A DNA stretch of 64,000 bases from a phage: assembly GCA_025611195.1 (NCBI GenBank), contig GCA_025611195.1_4718.1. One strand, given 5' to 3'. The first letter of the stretch is position 1. Each line of letters opens with the position of its first letter. Below the pieces are notes generated by a model, which was not told the origin of the DNA, did not search any database, and saw only the letters and a program-made list of their open reading frames with translations. Positions 4 to 15,811 of the stretch are shown here, in pieces. The position numbers and the translations under genes are program-made.

Positions 4-1257
4 ATGCTTGAAGACACCGACAGAAACCCGGTCGATACCGTCGAACAGGCATTACATAGTTTCGCTCGCGTCTACCAGTCTGGTTTCCCGTTGGGTGAAA
101 CTAACCCAATGGATATCATCAACGCGTACGAACGAAGCTCGATTCGATTGAAGGTTGAGGGGAATAACCCACGCTTCCCGAAATTGAATACAGATGTCAG
201 CGTTGAGCAGCGTAACTATCAGTCTCCTGATAACGAATTGATGGATCGTTACCGCCGTGACCATTTCATGGGTTTGGGAGTTTCTCCAGAGATTATCGAT
301 ACTTCCTACCAATCTGAATTCGCGGCTTCTGTGATTACCGCCAACGCGATGCAAGAGAAGCAGTTCACGGTTTGTCGTGAGGTTATCACGAACGGCTTAA
401 CTGATCACATCAAGAAGTACACGGCTTACAGTCCTGTATTGTTGACGTCGCTACGAAACACGGTTCGTGCGAACATGTCTAAGCTCTCCCAAGCACAATT
501 GAAACAGCTTTTTGGTAGCGATTTCGAAAACGGCGTTATTCGTAACGTTAATGCTTATCAGGAGATCGACGACCAGTCAGCAACAATGGACCTGGATTAT
601 TCTAAACCGGAAGTTCAGGAAGTTATTGCCGATGCTTATGTATCCATGTTCTTAAACAGTCTGCAGGTGCGTTTACCGAACAGCAATGCTCGCCGCCTTG
701 AAGATCAGGTACGTGAATATAATCAGTACAAGGAAGCGATTACAGCGCAACTTGATGATTATTTAACCCCTGATTACGTCATGGGTCTGGGTGGGGTTGA
801 TGAAACAACACTGCAGATGATCCGCGCATGCATTATTGGTACCGCGATGCGTACGTGGGCAAAAGAGAACAACTTCAATCAGGAGCTGGCTGATCTCTTC
901 AGTCTTGACGATAAGAAGAATGCCGTGCAAGATTGGAAACGTGCATCCATGGAGCATATTGAAATCATGGGTAAATGCATGGGTGATTTTGCATTGTATA
1001 TTCAGAATCTGACGAAGAAGATTGAAGAGAAGATGGGGGATCAAGCACAGGACGGCAGCGTTTCATCTGATGGTTCTTGGTCGTCTGATTCAAGTAGTGA
1101 TACCGGTTCTTCTGATGACTTTGGTGGTGATGATTTCGGGGATACCGATTTCGATACCGAAACGATGGAGGAAACCTCAACAGAGGAGACAACCACGTCT
1201 GAGGATACGACTACCGACACAACGTCAGAAGACGAGACTTCAGGTGATATTGTCTAA
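4..1257 (+). CDS. hypothetical protein with acidic Ser/Asp/Thr-rich C-terminal tail; ORF is open to the window edge so the true start may lie upstream
   Basis: 417-codon ORF; last ~70 aa low complexity (SSDGSWSSDSSSDTGSSDDFGGDDFGDTDFDTE...); hairpin 1289-1323 follows stop. Confidence 0.6.
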   Translation: MLEDTDRNPVDTVEQALHSFARVYQSGFPLGETNPMDIINAYERSSIRLKVEGNNPRFPKLNTDVSVEQRNYQSPDNELMDRYRRDHFMGLGVSPEIIDTSYQSEFAASVITANAMQEKQFTVCREVITNGLTDHIKKYTAYSPVLLTSLRNTVRANMSKLSQAQLKQLFGSDFENGVIRNVNAYQEIDDQSATMDLDYSKPEVQEVIADAYVSMFLNSLQVRLPNSNARRLEDQVREYNQYKEAITAQLDDYLTPDYVMGLGGVDETTLQMIRACIIGTAMRTWAKENNFNQELADLFSLDDKKNAVQDWKRASMEHIEIMGKCMGDFALYIQNLTKKIEEKMGDQAQDGSVSSDGSWSSDSSSDTGSSDDFGGDDFGDTDFDTETMEETSTEETTTSEDTTTDTTSEDETSGDIV

Positions 1258-1680: not shown

Positions 1681-4239
1681 TTACTGCTCTTCACGTTCCA
1701 ACAGATACTCGGAAGCGGTAATACCGTTTACCGTACGTACTGCTTTCAGACGAGTATCATCACTCAGAATCACGGTAACAGACTGCAGACCTTTTACTTT
1801 GGTCTCGAAGGTCTTGAATACCTGATCCAGCATACGAGCAATGCTTGGGTTGGTTGCAGCCGATGCGTGAGTGTAACCATTCTGGTTCAGCTTCAGAATC
1901 TTGGCGTTGGTTGGTACACGAAGAACAACATGCGGACGCATTGCGAACACACTGTGGTTAAACCAGTAAGCATCGTTACTATCTTCGTCGGTGACGATGT
2001 CTGGATTAACACGCATGTCTTCGGTAGCCGCGTCTGCCAAACGACGTTCGATTTCGTCAGCATCCAGAGAGCCGTCCTTCTCCAGTTCTGCACGATACTC
2101 ACTCATGGCAACCAGATGACGTTCACGATTCGCTGCAGATTTTTCGTGAGCGGCTTTCAGGTAGTCATGCATGTTGTACAGTTCTGCTATGGAAAGACGA
2201 ATGTTCCACTGACCTTCGCCGTCACGATTGCAGTAGAGACACTTCAGCATGTTGACCCAGGTGTAGTAGCAATTGGAGAACTCATCTTCAATGAACTTTT
2301 GATCCATTTTAAGATCGTGAATCAGCCAACCGGACAGTTCTCCGATATCATCAACGAAGCTAGAGATGGTGGTTTCAGAGAAGTTCTTCGGTACGATACG
2401 TTTGATCAGCTTGTTAACGTCTTTGGTCATGCTATCGTTCAGGAAATGCCAAATACGCAGAGGGATGACGTCACGATACTGTTGCATGATCTGACGATAA
2501 GCTTTGATATCGTCGCTACGACCTTTATCAATAGACAACGCGTCCAGGAATTCATGGATAGCATCCAGCTCTTTGTCGGTATAGGTTCCCAGATAGGAAT
2601 TGACCGTGGCAAGGAATGCTAATGCGTCGTTTTGGTTGACGTCAGTGTTGGTCTGCTGAATGATCGCTACTGCAGCTTTGGTTTCAGCATCCTCAACGCT
2701 TGACGCTGCGATCGCGTCGGTAACAGTAAACAGTTTCATTTCGCGCTGTTCGCCGACAACGATCGGTTCACGTTGAATCGGTTTGTTAAGACTAACGCGA
2801 ACAACTTCTGCTTGCGCGATACGATCCAGTTTTACCATTTCCTGCTCTGCCATACGACGAGCGGTTGGATCTGATTCAAGTTCGATGTATTCCACTTCTT
2901 CCTCCGTGAGGGATGTAATGTCAACAATGGTTTCATGAAGAATTCCGTTTTCGTCGATACGTGCTCGACGAGCGAAGTGTCTGAAGTCATACAACGTTGG
3001 CCAGCGACAATTCGGCGCGTAGTCTTTGGCCTTCAAACGCATCTGCATAAATTCTTCATGTTGAACAACACGACCGTAACGCTTAGCATCTTCGGTCGCA
3101 TCAATTGGATTAACGGTCTTTGTTACCGTAGCGGAACGAGCCGTACGAATGGGTTCCGGTTTAGTCTGCACAGGTTCAGGTTGAACGGATTTCTGTTGTC
3201 CGGCCTTAACATGCCATTCGGGTTCTTCGTACCGTTCAGCAAATTGCTCGGCTGCTGCAAAGATATCATTGATGCCACCAATATCTCCTTCTGGGTTCGT
3301 CGAATATACCCGTGGTTGCGGTGCCTCATAACGCGGCGCTGCGGTAGCAGGTGCGTCATTAACGATAGGATCGTCATCACCAACATCGTACAAACGGTTG
3401 AACGCACAATCCTTCGAATCGATATACGATGGAGCTTGTGGTTGGATAACCGTCGGTCGAGGCTGTGCGCCGTATCCCGGCATTGTTGGAGCCATACCAC
3501 GCATAACTGCCGGGTTAGGTTGGTATTGTGGTTGTGGGTAGGTTCCACCATACGTGGGATATGCGGGCTGTTGCGGTTGACCGTACCCACCGCCAACCAT
3601 CGCATTTGCTTGCGGCCCACGGTAAGTCATCCCCAGTTGCATTACCTGCTGCTTCAGACCACGGGACTTCTGCGCTATTTGCGCTAGACTCCCACTTTTA
3701 TTTAGCTGCGTGTACTTATTCGCGGCTTCCGGGTTAATGCGCGATAATTCAATCGCACGATAATATTCCGGGTATTGATTGGCTTCAAAGAGCCAGGTTA
3801 CGAGGTGATACAGCGCAACTGTGCTCACAGCAGCAGAGACGATCTGGTCGTTGGACGCATTCTGCGGCATCGGGTTGATGTAAGAGAATACGTTCCAACA
3901 ACAGTCTTCAACAAGCGATTCCATCATCATATCGTTATTGGTGTAACGTGCGACGAACTCGGTTTGTATTTTATCCTGTTGGGCGAAGTCTTTCAGGACA
4001 TTGAAGACGGCTTGACGGATTTTGACGATCGTCGCTTCTTGGGTGATGAAGTTATAGTTCTGCTGATATGATGGTTGTTGGTACTGTGGTTGTTGATAGG
4101 TGTTATTCGGGTATGCGCCGTACGGTGGTTGCTGGTACTGTTGCTGGCGAACCTGCTCAGCCGCATAATTAATCGTGCTCGCATAAGGGTTTTCGCTGTA
4201 GCCCATTTGCTGATACATGTTGTTACTGCCATTATACAT
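1681..4239 (-). CDS. large hypothetical protein (852 aa) with Gln/Tyr/Pro-rich low-complexity regions
   Basis: long ORF; N-terminus MYNGSNNMYQQMGYSENPY...YQQPQYQQPSYQQNY and internal GGGYGQPQQPAYPTYGGTYPQPQYQPNP. Confidence 0.7.
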   Translation of the reverse strand: MYNGSNNMYQQMGYSENPYASTINYAAEQVRQQQYQQPPYGAYPNNTYQQPQYQQPSYQQNYNFITQEATIVKIRQAVFNVLKDFAQQDKIQTEFVARYTNNDMMMESLVEDCCWNVFSYINPMPQNASNDQIVSAAVSTVALYHLVTWLFEANQYPEYYRAIELSRINPEAANKYTQLNKSGSLAQIAQKSRGLKQQVMQLGMTYRGPQANAMVGGGYGQPQQPAYPTYGGTYPQPQYQPNPAVMRGMAPTMPGYGAQPRPTVIQPQAPSYIDSKDCAFNRLYDVGDDDPIVNDAPATAAPRYEAPQPRVYSTNPEGDIGGINDIFAAAEQFAERYEEPEWHVKAGQQKSVQPEPVQTKPEPIRTARSATVTKTVNPIDATEDAKRYGRVVQHEEFMQMRLKAKDYAPNCRWPTLYDFRHFARRARIDENGILHETIVDITSLTEEEVEYIELESDPTARRMAEQEMVKLDRIAQAEVVRVSLNKPIQREPIVVGEQREMKLFTVTDAIAASSVEDAETKAAVAIIQQTNTDVNQNDALAFLATVNSYLGTYTDKELDAIHEFLDALSIDKGRSDDIKAYRQIMQQYRDVIPLRIWHFLNDSMTKDVNKLIKRIVPKNFSETTISSFVDDIGELSGWLIHDLKMDQKFIEDEFSNCYYTWVNMLKCLYCNRDGEGQWNIRLSIAELYNMHDYLKAAHEKSAANRERHLVAMSEYRAELEKDGSLDADEIERRLADAATEDMRVNPDIVTDEDSNDAYWFNHSVFAMRPHVVLRVPTNAKILKLNQNGYTHASAATNPSIARMLDQVFKTFETKVKGLQSVTVILSDDTRLKAVRTVNGITASEYLLEREEQ

Positions 4240-4274
4240 TTCTTACGATCCTTTTTATTTTATTCGGTTATGTG

Positions 4275-6071
4275 TCAATCGATTATGTCACGATCGTTAA
4301 TTTCTACAATTTCTTCATCGAATCGACCGACGTCTTTCTTCAAGCCTGCATTTGTTGCTGCAACGTCATTTGCGATTTGTGGGGTAATGATTAACCGACC
4401 GCGTTCATCGATAGGTGCGTACATACTGAACTTCTGACGTCCGGTTGGTTCGGAGTGTGGAAGATTCAGATAGCTTGCGCAGAACGGGATGGAACCACTC
4501 ACCAAACGACTCTCGTCAGCCAACGCAGCACCGCCTGCATTTTGGCTCTGGAGAACAACATGCGTGCTCACTTTGAACAGCATGCAATCGCCCGGTGACT
4601 GAATCGATGTTGCCACTTTCTCACGCTTATCACGATTGCTCTGGATATTGAGAATCGCTTCCGTTGCAACTTGATTGCGCAACGCCTTCTGTACATCGCG
4701 ATTGGTCATCTCTTTACGGTTGTTCTGTCGTTTACCACGTTCCGTGGTTTTAAGATGGAACCCCAGTTTAAAGATGCTTTTACGCACATCCTCCATGACG
4801 TATTCCAACACCATCAATTCCTTACCGAACATCGTCGTGGTATCAACACGACTCATTTCGATAGTAACGTTGTCAATCAGATACGCCATAAATTCGTAGA
4901 AGTCGTCGCAAGGAATATTTTCCTGTTTGAACTTCTTCTGTTGAATTTCATCAACGTAAAGATCGAGACTGTCGATGTGGTGGTTTACATCACGCAACAA
5001 ACGCGCATCCGCATTGTTGTTATTAAAGATAATCAAACCGAGTAATGTACGCCAATGGTCTGGCGCATTAGCGAACTCTTCAACCGGATAGTCTTCCGGG
5101 AAACGATCGTAATAACGGTCGATGAGATATAAGAACGCGCCGACAAGGCCAAGAACAATACGTTCCGTACCTCCACGTCTTACAGCGATTTGAATATCGG
5201 GATGTTTATAACGTACAGCGTTAGCGCTACGGCTTTTACCGCTTTTGCTGATACTAAAGCCTTTAGGAATAACCCCCATGGTGCGATAGATTACCCATTG
5301 GTCGCGCGGAAAATCGCGTTCAGCAAGATTCCGTCCGGTGACGGCTTCGACGCCAGCAAAACGTCGGAAACATTCACCCACCCCATACTTCGCAAAGAGA
5401 TAGTGACCCAGTGTGGTTACGCTGGTGTGGTTGATGTTGTCACCGTTCACTTTACTTTGTTTGGTAAGATGATAGATTTGCGACCAGGGTAACGACAGGT
5501 AATGACGATAATCGATACCCGTTGGTGTATCATTGCTCAGGAACTGATACGGTGTACGTTTAACCGTGATTTTGTCACGCGGAAGCATGATGAACGCCAT
5601 GTCTTTCGTGTAACTGATTACAGGGTCAGCGAGCACTGCACTGAGAATGAAGTTCGCACCACGTAGACGCATTTTACCACCCTGACCTACCGCGGGCAAT
5701 AGGAGAGGATGTCGGATAATGCAGTAGTCCTTTCCTGGTTCGCGGCGGTCACCTGATTCCATCGCACCATACCAGCGGAATTCTAGCATCACCATAAACA
5801 CGTCGGAAGGTGCAAGGTCGAAGGTCAGCTTACCGCTATCCTTCCCTTTGGTTTTCTTTCCTCCGCTTAAGTAGTGGAACTGTTCGCGGGCCATACAACG
5901 ACGCAGGCCATGATACACCAGATCCTTAGGTAAACTATCTTTGCTGTTCCGCCAAAGACGATCAACATAGGACTCAACATCTTGCATCTTATCGACGACG
6001 ATGTTGCGTGCTATCTTCTCGTTCATCTTCGGTGCAAGCTCAGCGACAGCTTTGCAGAATCTAGGATCCAT
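4275..6071 (-). CDS. hypothetical protein (598 aa)
   Basis: long ORF tightly packed in minus-strand gene string; no motif recognised. Confidence 0.7.
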   Translation of the reverse strand: MDPRFCKAVAELAPKMNEKIARNIVVDKMQDVESYVDRLWRNSKDSLPKDLVYHGLRRCMAREQFHYLSGGKKTKGKDSGKLTFDLAPSDVFMVMLEFRWYGAMESGDRREPGKDYCIIRHPLLLPAVGQGGKMRLRGANFILSAVLADPVISYTKDMAFIMLPRDKITVKRTPYQFLSNDTPTGIDYRHYLSLPWSQIYHLTKQSKVNGDNINHTSVTTLGHYLFAKYGVGECFRRFAGVEAVTGRNLAERDFPRDQWVIYRTMGVIPKGFSISKSGKSRSANAVRYKHPDIQIAVRRGGTERIVLGLVGAFLYLIDRYYDRFPEDYPVEEFANAPDHWRTLLGLIIFNNNNADARLLRDVNHHIDSLDLYVDEIQQKKFKQENIPCDDFYEFMAYLIDNVTIEMSRVDTTTMFGKELMVLEYVMEDVRKSIFKLGFHLKTTERGKRQNNRKEMTNRDVQKALRNQVATEAILNIQSNRDKREKVATSIQSPGDCMLFKVSTHVVLQSQNAGGAALADESRLVSGSIPFCASYLNLPHSEPTGRQKFSMYAPIDERGRLIITPQIANDVAATNAGLKKDVGRFDEEIVEINDRDIID

Positions 6072-6110: not shown

Positions 6111-7553
6111 TTACTTTTTCGATGACGTCTTCTCAAGAATCTTGAAAAAGGTCATACCTATACCGACAACGGCCGCAGTTATACTCGCAGCGGCTTTCCA
6201 AACATCGACGTTACGTTGACGTCGCGCTTCTTCCGCTTCACGTTGTCTTTTTGCCTCTTCATCACGTCGACGTATCTCAGCAGCAAACTCGTCGTGCTTA
6301 CGTTTGGCTTCTTCGTCTCGACGACGAAGTTCAGCGACGAATTCTTCATGTTTGCGTTTGGCCTCGTCATCACGACGTTTTAAATCAGCTTGATAATCTT
6401 CGTGTATTTGTCTACGTAGATCATCTTGACGTTTCATTTCGGCTTGGTGTTGTTCCATCCTACGTTTTGATTCGTCTCTAAGCTGATCGAGTTCGGCTTT
6501 GTGTTGTTCATCGCGCAGCTTTGCGTCGGCGCGATGCGCTTCGTGCATCTGTGCGATAACCGCCTTGTGTTCATCCGCCATACGCCGCATTTCAGCCATC
6601 ACCCCTTTAAGGGTTTCTTCTGATGACTTACGTTCATAGCTACGCTGGTCGAAATCATTTTTGTAGGCTTCTTTTTGGATGGGGTCGCGCCAATGCAATG
6701 CCGATTCACGTGTCGGAAAAACATTATACTTCCACATCTCTTTTTCCAAATCTTCGACCGGTACGAAGACGGAGTCGTTATTCCCGAAGGTAACCAACAT
6801 ACCTGGCGCGCCTGCTCCATTCGTTGGTTTTATTTCGAACGCTTTCCCCAGCACGTTAACCCATAGGCTATACGGATTATGAAAGTCGGGCGGCGTCCAA
6901 TGGATAGTGAGTTGCGTTCCGAGAATCCGGAAACCCTCTGTCTTTCCTGTCAAGCTCCGCGCACATGTTGCGATGTAGGGGTGATCAATCCCTTTCGTAA
7001 CATGGTCTGCGCTTTTGTATTCTCCTTTAACTTTTACGATTGCCACGTTGATTTGCGCGACATAAATAGGTTGATTAAAGTTCAACGTGTTGAGGTCAAT
7101 TTGACATATCTCATCCAGCGTATCGTACCAGTCTTGCTGGTCTAATAGACGCGGTATTTTCTCTGTGTTAACGGTGCGATGGATATGCGGTTTCCTTATC
7201 GCATAACCGGTGCCGTTTTTAACGCGGAGTATATCCCGACGTCTACCCGCGTAGACGAAGTTTCTGAATGCACCATTCGCATTAGATATGTCATGGCTGT
7301 CAACTATTACAGGACTACGAAATTTTGAACGTCGTACGATCCTGAATGTATTGCCGTCCTCAACTCTACCAGGAATGTACTGGAACATATTGTCGGAGGT
7401 GATAACCAACACGGTATGGCCGGATTCATTAATACATGCCCACCCTAATTCCAGGTCATACAACGGTTCAGCATAACCGTCAATGCGATATGCGTGCGTA
7501 CCATCCCACGGTTCGAACGCGGTATCACATATTGGCATGGAGGGCATCGTCAA
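6111..7553 (-). CDS. hypothetical protein (480 aa) with C-terminal charged coiled-coil repeats and C-terminal transmembrane anchor
   Basis: repeats RRRDEEAKRKHEEFVAEL / RRRDEEAKRKHDEFAAEI then hydrophobic WKAAASITAAVVGIGMTFFKIL at C-terminus; preceded by promoter-like motif 7695-7716. Confidence 0.7.
   Translation of the reverse strand: MTMPSMPICDTAFEPWDGTHAYRIDGYAEPLYDLELGWACINESGHTVLVITSDNMFQYIPGRVEDGNTFRIVRRSKFRSPVIVDSHDISNANGAFRNFVYAGRRRDILRVKNGTGYAIRKPHIHRTVNTEKIPRLLDQQDWYDTLDEICQIDLNTLNFNQPIYVAQINVAIVKVKGEYKSADHVTKGIDHPYIATCARSLTGKTEGFRILGTQLTIHWTPPDFHNPYSLWVNVLGKAFEIKPTNGAGAPGMLVTFGNNDSVFVPVEDLEKEMWKYNVFPTRESALHWRDPIQKEAYKNDFDQRSYERKSSEETLKGVMAEMRRMADEHKAVIAQMHEAHRADAKLRDEQHKAELDQLRDESKRRMEQHQAEMKRQDDLRRQIHEDYQADLKRRDDEAKRKHEEFVAELRRRDEEAKRKHDEFAAEIRRRDEEAKRQREAEEARRQRNVDVWKAAASITAAVVGIGMTFFKILEKTSSKK
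6205..6400 (-). repeat. in-frame tandem direct repeats (~54 bp unit, about 3 copies) encoding the charged coiled-coil segment of the 480-aa protein
   Basis: repeated DNA blocks ...cgtcgacgtatctcagcagcaaactcgtcgtgcttacgtttggc / ...cgtctcgacgacgaagttcagcgacgaattcttcatgtttgcgtttggc. Confidence 0.6.
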
Positions 7554-14049: not shown

Positions 14050-14952
14050 TTACTTAGCCTTTGAGTTATGCGGACTAACATGCTGTTGTACTCGTTGGAT
14101 TGTATCGTAGTACGGGTTAGATTGGTTGAACATGTTGTTGTGTGGGGGATAGCCATATGGCGCATTTTGCCTTGTTGGTGAGAAACCTTGTTGAGAAGGA
14201 CGGTTTGAATTAACCGCGAGTACGTAGTAAACCAAATTTTGACGGTCGAATGTTCCTTCGTTTTTGAAAGTGTCGGCGTAGGCTTTTACCGCTGGAGTGA
14301 GCCTATCACCATCGGCTGTAATAATTGTACCGTCTGGGTAAACTTCCCGAACGACGCACCATGTTCCGATGAGAACATCTTTAGGTGCTGTATTACCATA
14401 TCCGGTTGTAACGGTAAGGTAAGTATCGAACCCTTCAGAACAACAAGGATGACGATAGATGGGTCCTGTCATTTCCGTTCTATCGGTATCGCTACATTGT
14501 TCTATTGAGAGCGATGATGTGTCGGTTTTGAAATTGTCAAATTCTTTCTTTAAGTCGATTACGGGTTCTTTCGTATAGTACTTCTTGATTGCTTTGACGT
14601 AAAGATCAGGAACGGTTGTCAGCAATCCGTTATACCTGATTCTCAGGTTTTCGAGTAATCCAAAGATGCTCGCGCATGCCTGTTCGCGAGGTTTTGTAAG
14701 ATAAGAGATCCCCTCAGGAACGCTGGGATCTTTGAGAAAGAAGATTGCGTTATTGTCGTTGTGCGATGCGTTGAAGAAAACGATTGATTCGATATATACG
14801 GAGCATAGGCTGTCATTGGCGTCGTCAGATAACACCCAGATGCACTCATCGGTCGTCTTGTTTAAAAGTTCTGTTTTGTCGACCAAACGTTGTTTCATTG
14901 CGAGGAAATGTGCCTGTTGTTCAGCAGTTAATTCACGATAAATAGTGGTCAT
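14050..14952 (-). CDS. hypothetical protein (~300 aa), paralog of 15038-15811
   Basis: start at ATG 14952 with AAGGAG SD; C-terminal block HPCCSEGFDTYLTVTTGYGNTAPKDVLIGTWCVVREVYPDGTIITADG matches HPECHTTYDRYLTITGGVAAPSPVDIGEWRMIREIYPDGRIVTFCG in the neighbour. Confidence 0.65.
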   Translation of the reverse strand: MTTIYRELTAEQQAHFLAMKQRLVDKTELLNKTTDECIWVLSDDANDSLCSVYIESIVFFNASHNDNNAIFFLKDPSVPEGISYLTKPREQACASIFGLLENLRIRYNGLLTTVPDLYVKAIKKYYTKEPVIDLKKEFDNFKTDTSSLSIEQCSDTDRTEMTGPIYRHPCCSEGFDTYLTVTTGYGNTAPKDVLIGTWCVVREVYPDGTIITADGDRLTPAVKAYADTFKNEGTFDRQNLVYYVLAVNSNRPSQQGFSPTRQNAPYGYPPHNNMFNQSNPYYDTIQRVQQHVSPHNSKAK

Positions 14953-15037
14953 GTTGGGCTCCTTGATTACGATAAGGATGATTGCGGTTTTGTGGGTTTG
15001 GTAGGGCCCTAAACAAAGGAACCCTACCAATATTAGG

Positions 15038-15811
15038 TTAATCAGGATCGGCGTAGAAATGGTGAGGATAGCCGGAGTACGATCCTGCGTTACCGGCTAT
15101 GGATTCTTTCTGGGAATCGACGACGAGCGCATAGAACTGTCGGGAATTTGTTAGCGTTGAGAAATAAGCGGAAAGGACTTTTTCATTCAATGCATCACAA
15201 GGTAGGCAGGTGCGACCGCAAAACGTCACGATACGGCCGTCAGGATAGATCTCACGAATCATTCTCCACTCACCGATATCCACTGGTGATGGCGCTGCTA
15301 CACCACCTGTTATCGTTAAGTAACGATCGTACGTGGTATGGCATTCAGGATGAATATAGATCGGCTTGTTCGTTTCGACAGGTTCCGAAGTATCTCGACG
15401 ACTAAGAAGCTCAACGACTTCAAGATAAATCGTTGGTAGATCGCGGAGAATACCGGTGCTACGACGTTTCTTTGTGATTCGCGGACGAATCTCGTTGAGA
15501 GCGTATTCGAGCTTACGTTCAGCTTCGTACGCATCGAGTTTTATCAAGCGACCCGGTTCATCGGAATGATCCTGAGTTACGTAAACGAAATACGTGTCGC
15601 CTTTTGCAGCGTGAAAGATTCGAGCGACCTTAAATGTTTCTACGGTACGATAACCAAGGCGCGATTGATTTTCCACAGGAGAAAATATCCAATGCCGTCC
15701 TTCGTCAGCCTCAACAATTTCGTTGAAACTATCTGTCTGTTCTGGGACCTGGTAGTCAGCCAGTAATGTGTCGAGAGCATCATCAGCCAGTTTGATGTAA
15801 ATATCTGTCAT
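15038..15811 (-). CDS. hypothetical protein (257 aa), paralog of 14050-14952
   Basis: shared C-terminal domain with adjacent gene; preceded by promoter-like motif. Confidence 0.65.
   Translation of the reverse strand: MTDIYIKLADDALDTLLADYQVPEQTDSFNEIVEADEGRHWIFSPVENQSRLGYRTVETFKVARIFHAAKGDTYFVYVTQDHSDEPGRLIKLDAYEAERKLEYALNEIRPRITKKRRSTGILRDLPTIYLEVVELLSRRDTSEPVETNKPIYIHPECHTTYDRYLTITGGVAAPSPVDIGEWRMIREIYPDGRIVTFCGRTCLPCDALNEKVLSAYFSTLTNSRQFYALVVDSQKESIAGNAGSYSGYPHHFYADPD

Follow-up and report, generated by a model that had tools for sequence, protein, structure and literature searches.

Nucleus-forming jumbo phages carry an essential early protein that was named JADA in 2026 and was found to set off the Avs5 defence (PMC12931631). 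In Pseudomonas phages the protein is essential, early and abundant, and its location shifts to the early-infection (EPI) vesicle (PMC12931631). JADA is composed of an N-terminal domain, a long linker described as a 'disordered or flexible region', and a rigid, dimeric C-terminal domain (PMC12931631). The JADA of Pa36 forms foci at EPI vesicles, and its C-terminal domain is sensed by Avs5 (PMC12931631). Cryo-EM, mass photometry and modelling of the Pa36 protein revealed only a dimer, held together via the C-terminal domain (PMC12931631). According to its authors, the molecular function of JADA remains to be elucidated (PMC12931631).

No transposon insertion was recovered in phiKZ orf124, and phage transcription is strongly disturbed when KZ124 is knocked down by antisense. 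In Churi, the ortholog is classed as non-structural and is present at 15 min. The functional data for the family come from the Pseudomonas phages Pa36, phiKZ and Churi; for Goslar, a jumbo phage of E. coli, they consist of virion mass spectrometry. Our literature search found no published functional study of Goslar gp38, and nothing relevant on jumbo-phage condensates or PhiPA3 gp140/141.

The gene and its neighbourhood

The DNA analysed here, referred to as the window, is a stretch of 64,000 nucleotides. To judge from its sequence, it belongs to a Goslar relative within the Chimalliviridae, the nucleus-forming jumbo phages: it displays 95.7% nucleotide identity with Goslar across 12 kb, and the capsid gene nearby carries a PhiKZ_MCP Pfam domain (E 1.6e-217). 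The gene under study has the portal gene on one side and the major capsid gene on the other, though not as its direct neighbours on both sides, and the following features define its immediate surroundings.

Positions 1681 to 4239, minus strand: coding sequence of the 852-residue protein, stop codon included, taken from the list of open reading frames, with an ATG start.
Positions 4249 to 4253, minus strand: AAGGA, a Shine-Dalgarno-like sequence 9 nt 5′ of the ATG at 4239.
Positions 4275 to 6071, minus strand: upstream neighbour, a phiKZ gp123-type, beta-like non-virion RNA polymerase (nvRNAP) subunit, assigned through phrog_2943.

The PHROGs match of the upstream neighbour to phrog_2943, 'polymerase', has an E-value of 7e-120. 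Its stop codon is separated by a gap of 35 nt from the ATG of the 852-residue frame on the same strand. In Goslar the corresponding neighbour, gp039, is annotated 'polymerase' and carries an nvRNAP flag in Table S4. With the AAGGA motif 9 nt ahead of this ATG, the N-terminal tail discussed below belongs to the translated protein.

The 852-residue protein exhibits 95.7% amino acid identity with Goslar gp038 (YP_009820723.1, HOV27_gp038), and it is the direct ortholog of this gp38, which is annotated as a hypothetical protein. The two share their length of 852 residues, their neighbours and both low-complexity segments. They differ by a few substitutions within these segments, and Goslar gp38 alone has virion mass-spectrometry data, which put it at about 25 copies per virion.

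Probable membership of the JADA family

JADA genes are defined in part by their place immediately after the gp123-type nvRNAP subunit gene, downstream of it and in the same direction, and the window has this arrangement. A homolog occupies the same slot in 11 other chimalliviruses, namely phiKZ, 201phi2-1, Xoo-sp14, RTH11, pEa_SNUABM_54, SPLA10, RSL2, FLC9, Eowyn, LucasX and the P0005 contig. The sequences can be joined stepwise, from the window to P0005 (E 1.4e-108), from P0005 to Xoo-sp14 (2e-6), and from Xoo-sp14 to phiKZ gp124 (2e-7) and to RTH11 (4e-24). PhiKZ gp124 in turn gives a full-length match to 9rp3_A, 'Gp316/JADA', with E = 0. The bridging by tblastn via Xoo-sp14 was required because divergence within the family is too rapid for a profile built from a single clade.

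Further evidence comes from the C-terminal part of the protein.

Positions 1684 to 3099, minus strand: C-terminal domain, residues 381–852, homologous to the JADA domain solved in PDB 9RP3.

Comparison by hhalign of a profile of the Goslar and P0005 clades with one of phiKZ, 201phi2-1, RTH11, Xoo-sp14 and RSL2 gave a probability of 98.7% (E 4.3e-16, 237 columns), in which residues 404–673 matched phiKZ 364–625. Against the PDB, 9rp3_A ranked first for the clade profile, though at E 0.2. Taken together, the 852-residue protein is very probably a member of the JADA family (phiKZ gp124, Pa36 gp316, PDB 9RP3).

With the whole protein as a single sequence, phmmer found no JADA match in the PDB, and scans of Pfam and PHROGs gave no real match. 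A Pfam match to Cas9_C_2 at residues 730–791 scored 18.5 bits against a cutoff of 27 and was regarded as due to chance. Word-indexed homolog searches returned close relatives and P0009 only, the query being probably swamped by low-complexity words, and an exhaustive HMM search of 1.84 billion representatives returned P0005 and one fragment of 47 residues only. The IMG/VR locus search with the clade alignment recovered Goslar-like contigs only, and the same search with pEa54 and P0009 found nothing; an alignment of the whole family offers no stretch of sufficient conservation for such a search. The JADA identity was absent from the earlier note on this DNA.

Domain layout

The protein displays the three-part layout of JADA, with a helical region at 56–203, about 100–170 residues of low-complexity or unstructured sequence, and a mixed alpha/beta region at 381–852. 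In the alignment these parts agree with the boundaries of phiKZ, which lie at residues 170 and 270. Two of them are delimited as follows.

Positions 3619 to 4050, minus strand: predicted all-helical N-terminal domain, residues 64–207, from AF2 secondary structure and from the position of the JADA N-terminal domain.
Positions 3100 to 3423, minus strand: second part of the linker, residues 273–380, acidic and Pro-rich, with little predicted structure.

In the full-length AF2 model, the helices from 56 to 203 are the best-scoring part, with a pLDDT of 55–70. Homology of this domain to those of phiKZ-type JADA was not demonstrable by hhalign; the N-terminal sub-alignments gave a weak, colinear match of residues 69–156 to 52–138 (probability 3.7%, E 0.011). 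The second part of the linker holds NRLYDVGDDDP at 281–291, a motif that 201phi2-1 and phiKZ also have, and a single predicted short helix at 323–335.

Both AF2 models were poor, with a pLDDT of 38.7 for the full-length protein and a pLDDT of 49.7 and pTM of 0.31 for the C-terminal domain; therefore pLDDT was not taken as a measure of disorder, and fold matches were treated as supportive only. With this poor C-terminal model as the query, Foldseek placed 9rp3_A and 9rp3_B at ranks 1 and 2 (probability 1.00 and 0.99, E 1.1e-4); no other PDB entry matched at E <= 1e-3. The TM-scores were only 0.15–0.19, owing to the quality of the model. The top BFVD matches of the same model were proteins from the JADA slot.

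Relative to phiKZ gp124, the window protein has the same slot after the gp123-type nvRNAP, the same strand, the same three-part layout and a homologous C-terminal domain, and both phages belong to the Chimalliviridae. The identity is about 15%, and the window protein is 131 residues longer, with a linker richer in Tyr. It also has an extra 63-residue tail with periodic Tyr, whereas phiKZ has a shorter N-terminus of N/P/Q and aromatic residues.

Two low-complexity segments

The earlier note described an 852-residue frame with a Q/Y/N/P-rich start of about 60 residues and a second, internal block, and the list of reading frames and the composition bear this out.

Positions 4051 to 4239, minus strand: N-terminal low-complexity tail, residues 1–63, Q/Y/N/P-rich by composition.
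Positions 3424 to 3618, minus strand: internal low-complexity block, residues 208–272, P/G/Q/Y-rich by composition and placed by MAFFT alignment.

The strings quoted in that description are found at residues 48–62 (YQQPQYQQPSYQQNY) and 216–243 (GGGYGQPQQPAYPTYGGTYPQPQYQPNP). The tail is composed of Q 0.24, Y 0.19, N 0.14 and P 0.10, with Q+Y+P+N+G at 0.71, Q+N+S+G+Y at 0.68, charged residues (K/R/D/E) at 0.05, I/L/V/F/M/W at 0.08 and an entropy of 3.20 bits. The internal block is composed of P 0.22, G 0.15, Q 0.15, A 0.11 and Y 0.11, with Q+Y+P+N+G at 0.66, charged residues at 0.03 and an entropy of 3.19 bits. The ordered parts of the protein have an entropy of about 4.1 bits. The top 30-residue stretch of the protein reaches a Q+Y+P of 0.77, compared with 0.43 for the runner-up among the 121 frames of at least 100 residues in the window. 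The Q/Y/P-rich composition is thus a single case within the window, yet common in the protein's own family.

Residues 1–63 harbor 12 Tyr, one per about 5 residues, and Phe64 lies just outside the segment. The spacing of these Tyr has a CV of 0.37, and 37 of 20,000 shuffles were equally regular (p about 0.002). The aromatic spacing of the internal block is not significantly even (3717/20,000 shuffles). Both segments fit the prion-like, or sticker-and-spacer, compositional class, being about 60 residues or more in length, polar and Tyr-rich, with few charged or aliphatic residues. In comparisons of the bare segments with the PDB (phmmer/HMMER), chance matches only were obtained and none was significant.

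Selection on the segments

In the comparison with Goslar, dN/dS is 0.09 for the N-tail and 0.21 for the linker block; in the comparison with L010 the values are 0.06 and 0.07. The C-terminal domain has a dN/dS of 0.04. These ratios place both low-complexity segments under purifying selection. Among the five closely related sequences of the Goslar clade, 18 of the 19 aromatic positions in the segments are invariant, the sole change being Y25F, compared with 79 of the 109 remaining ones (Fisher p 0.042). All 12 aromatic positions of the N-tail remain aromatic and all 7 Tyr of the linker block are invariant in this clade. The differences from Goslar gp38 in the segments include P38S, T47A and Q50P, and none falls at a Tyr.

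These data also bear on whether the segments are a neutral low-complexity expansion, produced by slippage, or an untranslated artefact of annotation. The indels of the Goslar clade, which are all within the N-tail (after residues 41, 45, 50 and 54), and the relatives that have no tail would suit such an origin. The low dN/dS, the ribosome-binding site before the first ATG, the presence of the tail in each of the five sequences of the Goslar clade, the most distant of which has 79% identity, and the presence of a linker in every ortholog argue against it. Tandem Repeats Finder detected no DNA tandem repeats over positions 3300–4300, and for this reason recent slippage was rejected as the source of the peptide repeats. 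A neutral or artefactual origin is therefore scarcely credible.

The linker and the tail across orthologs

In a MAFFT alignment of 15 orthologs, the internal block aligns to the phiKZ linker at 170–270, and residues 208–272 evidently correspond to the first 65 residues of the published interdomain disordered linker of JADA. The linker is low-complexity in all 15 orthologs. Twelve have aromatic/polar linkers with 6–11% aromatic residues, 49–68% Q/N/G/P/S/T and 4–20% charged residues; three, those of Xoo-sp14, SPLA10 and RSL2, are Arg/Asp-rich, mixed-charge and poor in aromatics, and so aromatic stickers are not universal in the family. The mean gap between aromatics in the ortholog linkers is mostly 9–11 residues. 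Their spacing is significantly even in FLC9 (0/5000 shuffles) and LucasX (22/5000), marginally so in RTH11 (146/5000) and phiKZ (212/5000), and not significantly so in P0009, Eowyn, 201phi2-1 and P0005. P0009 and Eowyn, at an identity of at most 17–22%, have Y/Q/P linkers similar in composition to that of the window. The composition thus recurs over deep divergence without conservation of sequence.

The earlier note would have taken the loss of the segments from otherwise conserved relatives as a sign of a neutral insertion. Such relatives exist for the N-tail: the P0005 clade, Xoo-sp14, RSL2 and SPLA10 lack the Y/Q/P tail, with the rest of the protein conserved, and in most clades it is absent or strongly reduced. 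The same does not hold for the linker, given its low complexity in 15/15. The Y/Q/N/P tail is an extra segment specific to the Goslar clade, in which the aromatic/polar pattern of the linker is duplicated as a free N-terminal tail. The family itself is known; the aromatic/polar (or Arg/Asp) low-complexity pattern is the part that had gone undescribed.

An alternative account of such segments is that of flexible spacers, with no sticker role for the aromatics; selection would keep them disordered, soluble and constrained in length, and they would allow the N-terminal domain to act at a distance from the dimeric C-terminal domain. The family linkers agree with it in that they lack sequence conservation and stay within 87–161 residues in 15/15 orthologs, as do the switch of composition to Arg/Asp in three clades, the coming and going of the N-tail among clades, the accumulation of indels in the tail, and the published wording, which is simply 'disordered or flexible region' (PMC12931631). 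A pure spacer, however, does not need 10–20% Tyr or Trp. The aromatics are the most conserved positions of the segments and are evenly spaced in several independent clades, and an aromatic density of about 0.07–0.12 recurs across unrelated spacer chemistries (G/N, Q/P and G/R). Moreover, the free N-terminal tail connects nothing and is left unexplained. We regard a purely passive role as somewhat unlikely.

Comparison with eukaryotic and host low-complexity domains

The earlier note likened the segments to eukaryotic low-complexity domains that drive condensation. The likeness stands: aromatics make up 10–20% of segments of Q/N/G/P spacers with few charged residues, and it is strengthened by the regular Tyr spacing of the N-tail, the conserved aromatics, the dN/dS of 0.06–0.21 and the recurrence of the pattern in distant orthologs. 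The prion-like domains of FUS and hnRNPA1 are about 135–215 residues long and are described by the stickers-and-spacers model. As a functional analogy, the FET/hnRNP domains share with the window segments the polar Q/N/G/S/P spacers, the 10–20% of evenly spaced aromatics, the scarcity of charged and aliphatic residues, the retention of composition without sequence conservation, and the connection to an oligomerising folded domain. The orthologs of LucasX and Xoo-sp14 have RGG/YGG-like repeats, as in FET/hnRNP proteins. The differences are that there is no evolutionary relationship, that the window segments are shorter (about 65 residues) and richer in Pro, and that no RNA-binding domain was identified.

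A second analogy is the disordered linker of the E. coli single-stranded DNA-binding protein SSB (residues about 113–168), for which roles in cooperativity and phase separation have been reported. It is G/Q/P-rich with sparse aromatics and lies between a folded oligomeric domain and another element; it differs in that aromatics account for about 4% of it and Gly for 30%. The window linker and the SSB linker of the same host species share G[YW]GQPQQP, GYGQPQQP in the former and GWGQPQQP in the latter. A shared 6-mer arose in 133 of 20,000 composition-preserving shuffles (0.7%), and the match may be a low-complexity coincidence.

On another reading, the segments would not drive self-association but recruit defined partners, through short linear motifs or by mimicry of host disordered regions such as the SSB linker. 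Candidate partners would be replication or division proteins, ribosomes or RNA. In the Goslar clade, 201phi2-1 and phiKZ, the low-complexity block is directly followed by a motif N-x-[LA]-Y-D-V-[GP]; phiKZ gp124 is stated, at second hand in PMC11849849, to bind host DnaX/FtsZ; and the Arg-rich, RGG-like linkers of Xoo-sp14, LucasX, RSL2 and SPLA10 would suit RNA binding. Yet the SSB match is a single short low-complexity word found after searching for it, the LYDV motif occurs in just 3 clades among the 15 orthologs, and the bare segments have no significant PDB match by HMMER. Docking of this kind is accordingly improbable.

Envelope and virion

Binding to the cell wall or envelope, which the earlier note put forward as another role, finds no counterpart in the data. 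There is no Pfam or PHROG match to LysM, SPOR, PG_binding, CW_binding, SLH or similar domains, and no N-terminus resembling a signal peptide was seen. The top 19-residue Kyte-Doolittle stretch (KD 1.71, residues 133–151), the sole one that approaches the threshold for a transmembrane segment, lies within the predicted helical N-terminal domain. Family members are reported to be early, non-structural and cytosolic, then located at the early-infection vesicle.

The virion proteome, which the same note proposed to check, gives an ambiguous answer. Mass spectrometry of CsCl-purified Goslar virions recovered gp038 (26 peptides, 28% coverage), at an estimated 17–39 copies per virion. No N-terminal tryptic peptide of gp38 occurs among the peptides examined, which is uninformative, as those expected from that region are very long. 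In the same sample the co-transcribed nvRNAP neighbour was at 0.14 copies, DnaB at 1.5 and the DNA polymerase at 0.1. Together with the position of the gene between those for the portal and the major capsid protein, this is what would be expected of a virion or ejected protein whose Tyr/Pro-rich modules touch the host envelope or the capsid interior. However, chimallin (about 126 copies) and PhuZ (about 170), neither of which is a virion protein, are present in the same preparation, showing that abundant intracellular proteins carry over into it. Gp38 is outside the 28-protein cryo-EM model and is not discussed in that paper, and 201phi2-1 gp204 and phiKZ gp124 have no virion-protein flag while their neighbours are flagged. 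The early, non-structural Churi ortholog and the passage of JADA from the cytosol to EPI vesicles also disagree with a virion role, as does the lack of an envelope-binding Pfam domain. A function in the virion is very unlikely.

Proposed role of the segments

The best overall explanation, to which we assign a probability of roughly 0.5, is that the protein is a JADA ortholog whose disordered segments, maintained by selection, act as sticker and spacer elements for clustering. The aromatic residues would serve as weak stickers among polar spacers. As the C-terminal domain dimerises, which is published for the Pa36 JADA, each particle would display four low-complexity segments. Multivalent contacts of low affinity, with other copies or with partners, could then concentrate JADA at the site of early transcription and translation around the EPI vesicle. 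JADA would then act as a sticky tether or as a scaffold resembling a condensate, not as a folded binding module. The foci of the Pa36 protein at EPI vesicles, the absence of transposon insertions from phiKZ orf124 and the effect of KZ124 knock-down on transcription agree with this idea. Multivalent association driven by stickers in the segments is itself put forward tentatively, at somewhat less than even odds, from composition and conservation.

An extension of this model, which we consider rather unlikely, is that JADA scaffolds a condensate-like layer which surrounds the early-infection vesicle. A cohesive, selectively permeable meshwork might be built from the dimeric C-terminal domain and from the aromatic/polar linkers and tails (in some clades, linkers that are Arg-rich and mixed-charge). 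Ahead of the formation of the chimallin nucleus, such a meshwork could enrich nascent phage mRNA, ribosomes, or factors for import and assembly, and would be the bacterial-virus counterpart of the condensates of eukaryotic viral factories or of cohesive FG-nucleoporin domains. It would explain why JADA is essential, abundant and early, and why transcription collapses on its depletion. It would also explain the co-sedimentation with Goslar virions and the patrolling of the same site by Avs5.

If the segments drive clustering at the EPI vesicle, they would represent one of the rare phage examples of a prion-like domain with a function, and would give mechanistic access to the part of the chimallivirus life cycle that is least understood. 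Should they play no such part, what is left is an ordinary JADA ortholog with low-complexity regions that could be removed for structural work. The JADA of the Goslar group makes the function of the protein accessible to study in a tractable E. coli system.

Composition of the open reading frame

The ORF under study is:

1681–4239, minus strand: 852-aa ORF with an ATG start

A Shine-Dalgarno sequence, AAGGA, lies 9 nt 5′ of this ATG. The N-terminal tail, residues 1–63, consists of Q (0.24), Y (0.19), N (0.14) and P (0.10), with a charged fraction of 0.05. The internal block, residues 208–272, is composed of P (0.22), G (0.15), Q (0.15), A (0.11) and Y (0.11), with a charged fraction of 0.03. 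Their entropies are 3.20 and 3.19 bits, against about 4.1 bits in the ordered parts of the protein. The top Q+Y+P fraction over 30 residues is 0.77, versus 0.43 in the next of the window's 121 ORFs of at least 100 aa. The Q/Y/P-rich segments claimed in the earlier note are thus borne out by measurement, and both strings it quoted are found, at residues 48–62 and 216–243. Tandem Repeats Finder detects no DNA tandem repeat behind the blocks; therefore the peptide periodicity does not come from recent slippage.

Two other low-complexity tails were observed in the window. An ORF of about 348 aa (14053–15096, minus strand) has a C-terminal tail rich in Q/N/P/Y/F, SQQGFSPTRQNAPYGYPPHNNMFNQSNPYY, and ranks second in Q/Y/P richness among the long ORFs. 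The portal protein (ortholog of Goslar gp36; 4–1257, plus strand) ends in an acidic tail of about 70 residues rich in Ser/Thr/Asp/Glu, ...SSDGSWSSDSSSDTGSSDDFGGDDFGDTDFDTETMEETSTEETTTSEDTTTDTTSEDETSGDIV.

Identity of the protein

Over its first 12 kb, the window has 95.7% identity to the nucleus-forming Escherichia jumbo phage vB_EcoM_Goslar, and the protein shares 95.7% amino acid identity with its ortholog Goslar gp38 (YP_009820723.1), annotated as 'hypothetical'. Pfam and PHROGs searches with the protein gave no matches. The gene directly upstream encodes a gp123-type non-virion RNA polymerase (nvRNAP) subunit (phrog_2943, E 7e-120); the other neighbors are the portal gene, a small ORF and the gene for a PhiKZ-type major capsid protein.

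Close relatives are few. Sequence searches found four at 79–99% identity, and an HMM run exhaustively over 1.84 billion representatives added one further clade, P0005 (E 1.4e-108), whose contig has the same gene order as the window. With P0005, tblastn reached Xoo-sp14_124 (E 2e-6) and, weakly, 201phi2-1 gp204. Xoo-sp14_124 in turn led to phiKZ gp124 (2e-7), RTH11 (4e-24), PhiPA3 and the chimalliviruses of Erwinia, Salmonella, Ralstonia and Burkholderia. In every genome examined, the homolog is the first gene downstream of that for the gp123-type polymerase subunit. A profile of Goslar and P0005 matched one of phiKZ, 201phi2-1, RTH11, Xoo-sp14 and RSL2 with 98.7% probability (E 4.3e-16, 237 columns), aligning window residues 404–673 with phiKZ 364–625. 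Along its whole length, phiKZ gp124 matches PDB chain 9rp3_A, 'Gp316/JADA' (E = 0).

Searches against known structures lend tentative support. In a search of the PDB with the clade profile, 9rp3_A came top, at an E value of only 0.2. The AF2 model of residues 362–852 is poor (pLDDT 49.7); with it, Foldseek gave 9rp3_A/B as the sole PDB matches at E ≤ 1e-3 (E 1e-4, with low TM-scores), and JADA-slot proteins of other chimalliviruses were matched in BFVD. Homology between the N-terminal domain and that of JADA was not demonstrable by hhalign (probability 3.7%). The window protein shares with the family its synteny, genome type, C-terminal domain homology and three-part architecture, and is very probably a JADA ortholog. 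JADA is a known, recently named family, and the internal block is a feature published before as its 'disordered linker'.

Published properties of JADA, and a gene further upstream

JADA stands for Jumbo phage Avs5 Defense Activator (Muralidharan et al., Mol Cell 2026, PMC12931631). The protein is essential, abundant and expressed early, and its gene invariably lies directly downstream of the nvRNAP subunit gene. It comprises an N-terminal domain (1–170), a long disordered linker (170–270) and a C-terminal domain (270–721). The C-terminal domain is a rigid dimer, the sole part visible by cryo-EM, and by itself suffices to trigger the Avs5 Sir2 NADase. Upon infection, tagged JADA relocates to the early-infection (EPI) vesicles; according to the authors, its molecular function 'remains to be elucidated' (PMC12931631). 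Independent data are in agreement. PhiKZ orf124 had zero transposon insertions after filtering (PMC12676376), and a polar artefact is unlikely because orf125, downstream of it, accepts many. When KZ124 was knocked down by antisense, phage transcription was strongly perturbed at 30 min (PMC12571901). In Churi, the ortholog is listed as non-structural and was seen at 15 min (PMC11849849).

In CsCl-purified virions, Goslar gp038 gave 26 peptides and an estimate of about 25 (17–39) copies per virion (Table S4, bioRxiv 10.64898/2026.04.21.720040). The same sample contained 0.14 copies of the nvRNAP subunit gp39, 1.5 of DnaB and 0.1 of DNA polymerase, along with about 126 of chimallin and about 170 of PhuZ, both non-virion proteins. 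The copy number of gp38 is thus far above that of the co-transcribed nvRNAP subunit, DnaB and DNA polymerase, and below that of chimallin and PhuZ. The protein is absent from the cryo-EM model and undiscussed in that paper, and the phiKZ and 201phi2-1 orthologs carry no virion flag. The signal could reflect carry-over of an abundant protein, co-sedimenting assemblies or real packaging.

Two genes upstream of JADA, in the slot of phiKZ gp122, lies the Goslar gp40 ortholog (6111–7553, minus strand; 480 aa). It has a long charged coiled-coil with about three near-identical repeats, RRRDEEAKRKH(E/D)EF(V/A)AE(L/I), and ends in a hydrophobic helix, AASITAAVVGIGMTFFKIL, resembling a tail anchor. Most orthologs in the syntenic slot (P0005 contig, Xoo-sp14, RSL2, FLC9, pEa54 and RTH11) likewise have a hydrophobic helix at the C-terminus, which is weaker in those of phiKZ and 201phi2-1. 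PhiKZ orf122 likewise had zero transposon insertions (PMC12676376), and its knock-down likewise perturbed transcription (PMC12571901). The gp40 ortholog could act together with JADA as its partner at a membrane or the EPI vesicle.

Linker and tail across the family

Fifteen orthologs were aligned, and the linker was delimited by the published phiKZ boundaries. By this measure, the interdomain linker begins with the internal block. The linker is of low complexity in all 15 and 87–161 residues long. Twelve of the linkers are aromatic/polar (Q/N/G/P/S/T 0.49–0.68, aromatic 0.06–0.11, charged 0.04–0.20). The chemistry of their spacers differs greatly: Q/P/Y in Goslar, P0009 and Eowyn, G/N/W in RTH11, G/Q/N/W in FLC9, G/R/Y (RGG-like) in LucasX and G/P/Q/M in phiKZ. 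Aromatic density of linkers is consistent at 0.07–0.12, the mean gap being mostly 9–11 residues. The remaining three linkers are of Arg/Asp(/Gly) mixed charge (K/R/D/E 0.39–0.58), with runs such as RDRDDRDDRRDDRRGGGRR.

JADA orthologs with an Arg/Asp linker
L003, 7975–10122: Xoo-sp14
L008, 4156–6540: SPLA10
L009, 5836–7926: RSL2

The Tyr-periodic N-terminal block is a free tail limited to the Goslar clade. Its counterpart in Erwinia phage pEa_SNUABM_54 is looser (Y/P/Q/S), the N-termini of phiKZ and 201phi2-1 are shorter (N/P/Q/aromatic), and that of SPLA10 is rich in Arg/Asp; the Xoo-sp14 and RSL2 orthologs have no comparable tail. To our knowledge, the family-wide low-complexity linker pattern and the Tyr-periodic tail of the Goslar clade are undescribed; literature searches turned up no account of either.

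The main rival explanation of these segments is a passive tether. The switch of the linker to Arg/Asp in three clades and the patchy distribution of the tail argue for it, yet a tail that is free at the N-terminus and links no two parts is left unexplained. We regard a passive tether as somewhat unlikely.

Selection on the segments

Against Goslar, the tail has a dN/dS of 0.09 and the linker block one of 0.21; the values of the N- and C-terminal domains are 0.03 and 0.04. Against the more distant relative L010, it is 0.06 for the tail and 0.07 for the linker block, with dS near saturation. Of the 19 aromatic positions in the two blocks, 18 do not vary among the five sequences of the Goslar clade, the sole change being Y25F; of the other positions, 79 of 109 are invariant (Fisher p 0.042). 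All tail indels in this clade fall between tyrosines. The spacing of the tail tyrosines is 7, 5, 5, 6, 10, 5, 3, 5, 5, 5, 4, 2, a regularity equaled in 37 of 20,000 shuffles. Aromatic residues are also spaced significantly evenly in the P0003 tail and in the linkers of FLC9 and LucasX, and marginally so in RTH11 and phiKZ; no significance was reached for the linker block of the window protein or for P0009, Eowyn, 201phi2-1 or P0005. These comparisons of sequences show that selection maintains the two blocks and that their aromatic residues are conserved. Conserved, evenly spaced aromatic residues are left unexplained by a passive tether.

The JADA gene of L010 (3501–6089, IMGVR_UViG_3300011560_000001) looks mosaic relative to that of the window. 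Over residues 381–852 it differs by 61 synonymous and 10 non-synonymous changes, exactly the counts found for Goslar, while the N-terminal 330 or so residues diverge strongly (dS 1.0–2.9). Such a pattern suggests recombination with a breakpoint within the gene, close to where the linker ends; therefore, tail, N-terminal domain and linker together may swap as a module, apart from the C-terminal domain sensed by Avs5.

Possible role of the segments

The stickers-and-spacers model was derived from the low-complexity domains of FET and hnRNP proteins. The pattern of the blocks matches this type of domain, and by that analogy we tentatively favor such a mechanism (probability about 0.35–0.4). Low-complexity segments on a dimeric core would give multivalent weak association, which could explain how the abundant early JADA is concentrated in foci at the EPI vesicle. 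For the envelope binding that the earlier note had also proposed, no support was found.

Alternatively, the segments could hold docking motifs for partners, which we consider improbable. The linker word GYGQPQQP (residues 221–228; 3555–3578, minus strand) matches GWGQPQQP in the disordered linker of the SSB of the host, E. coli (ssb locus L016, 2126–2662). A 6-mer shared with the SSB linker arises in only 133 of 20,000 (0.7%) composition-preserving shuffles of the window linker. The likeness could be low-complexity coincidence or mimicry. Just past the block lies NRLYDVGDDDP (residues 281–291; 3387–3419, minus strand), equivalent to NSLYDVPVNEP in 201phi2-1 gp204 and NAAYDVPGSSP in phiKZ gp124. 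The common pattern, N-x-[LA]-Y-D-V-[GP], is seen in these three clades and is missing from the other orthologs sampled; its core is expected by chance at about 0.05–0.1 per sequence in the shuffled region. It may be a docking motif. PhiKZ gp124 is also reported, at second hand, to bind DnaX/FtsZ.

The pattern of tail and linker offers a concrete, testable lead on the function of JADA.
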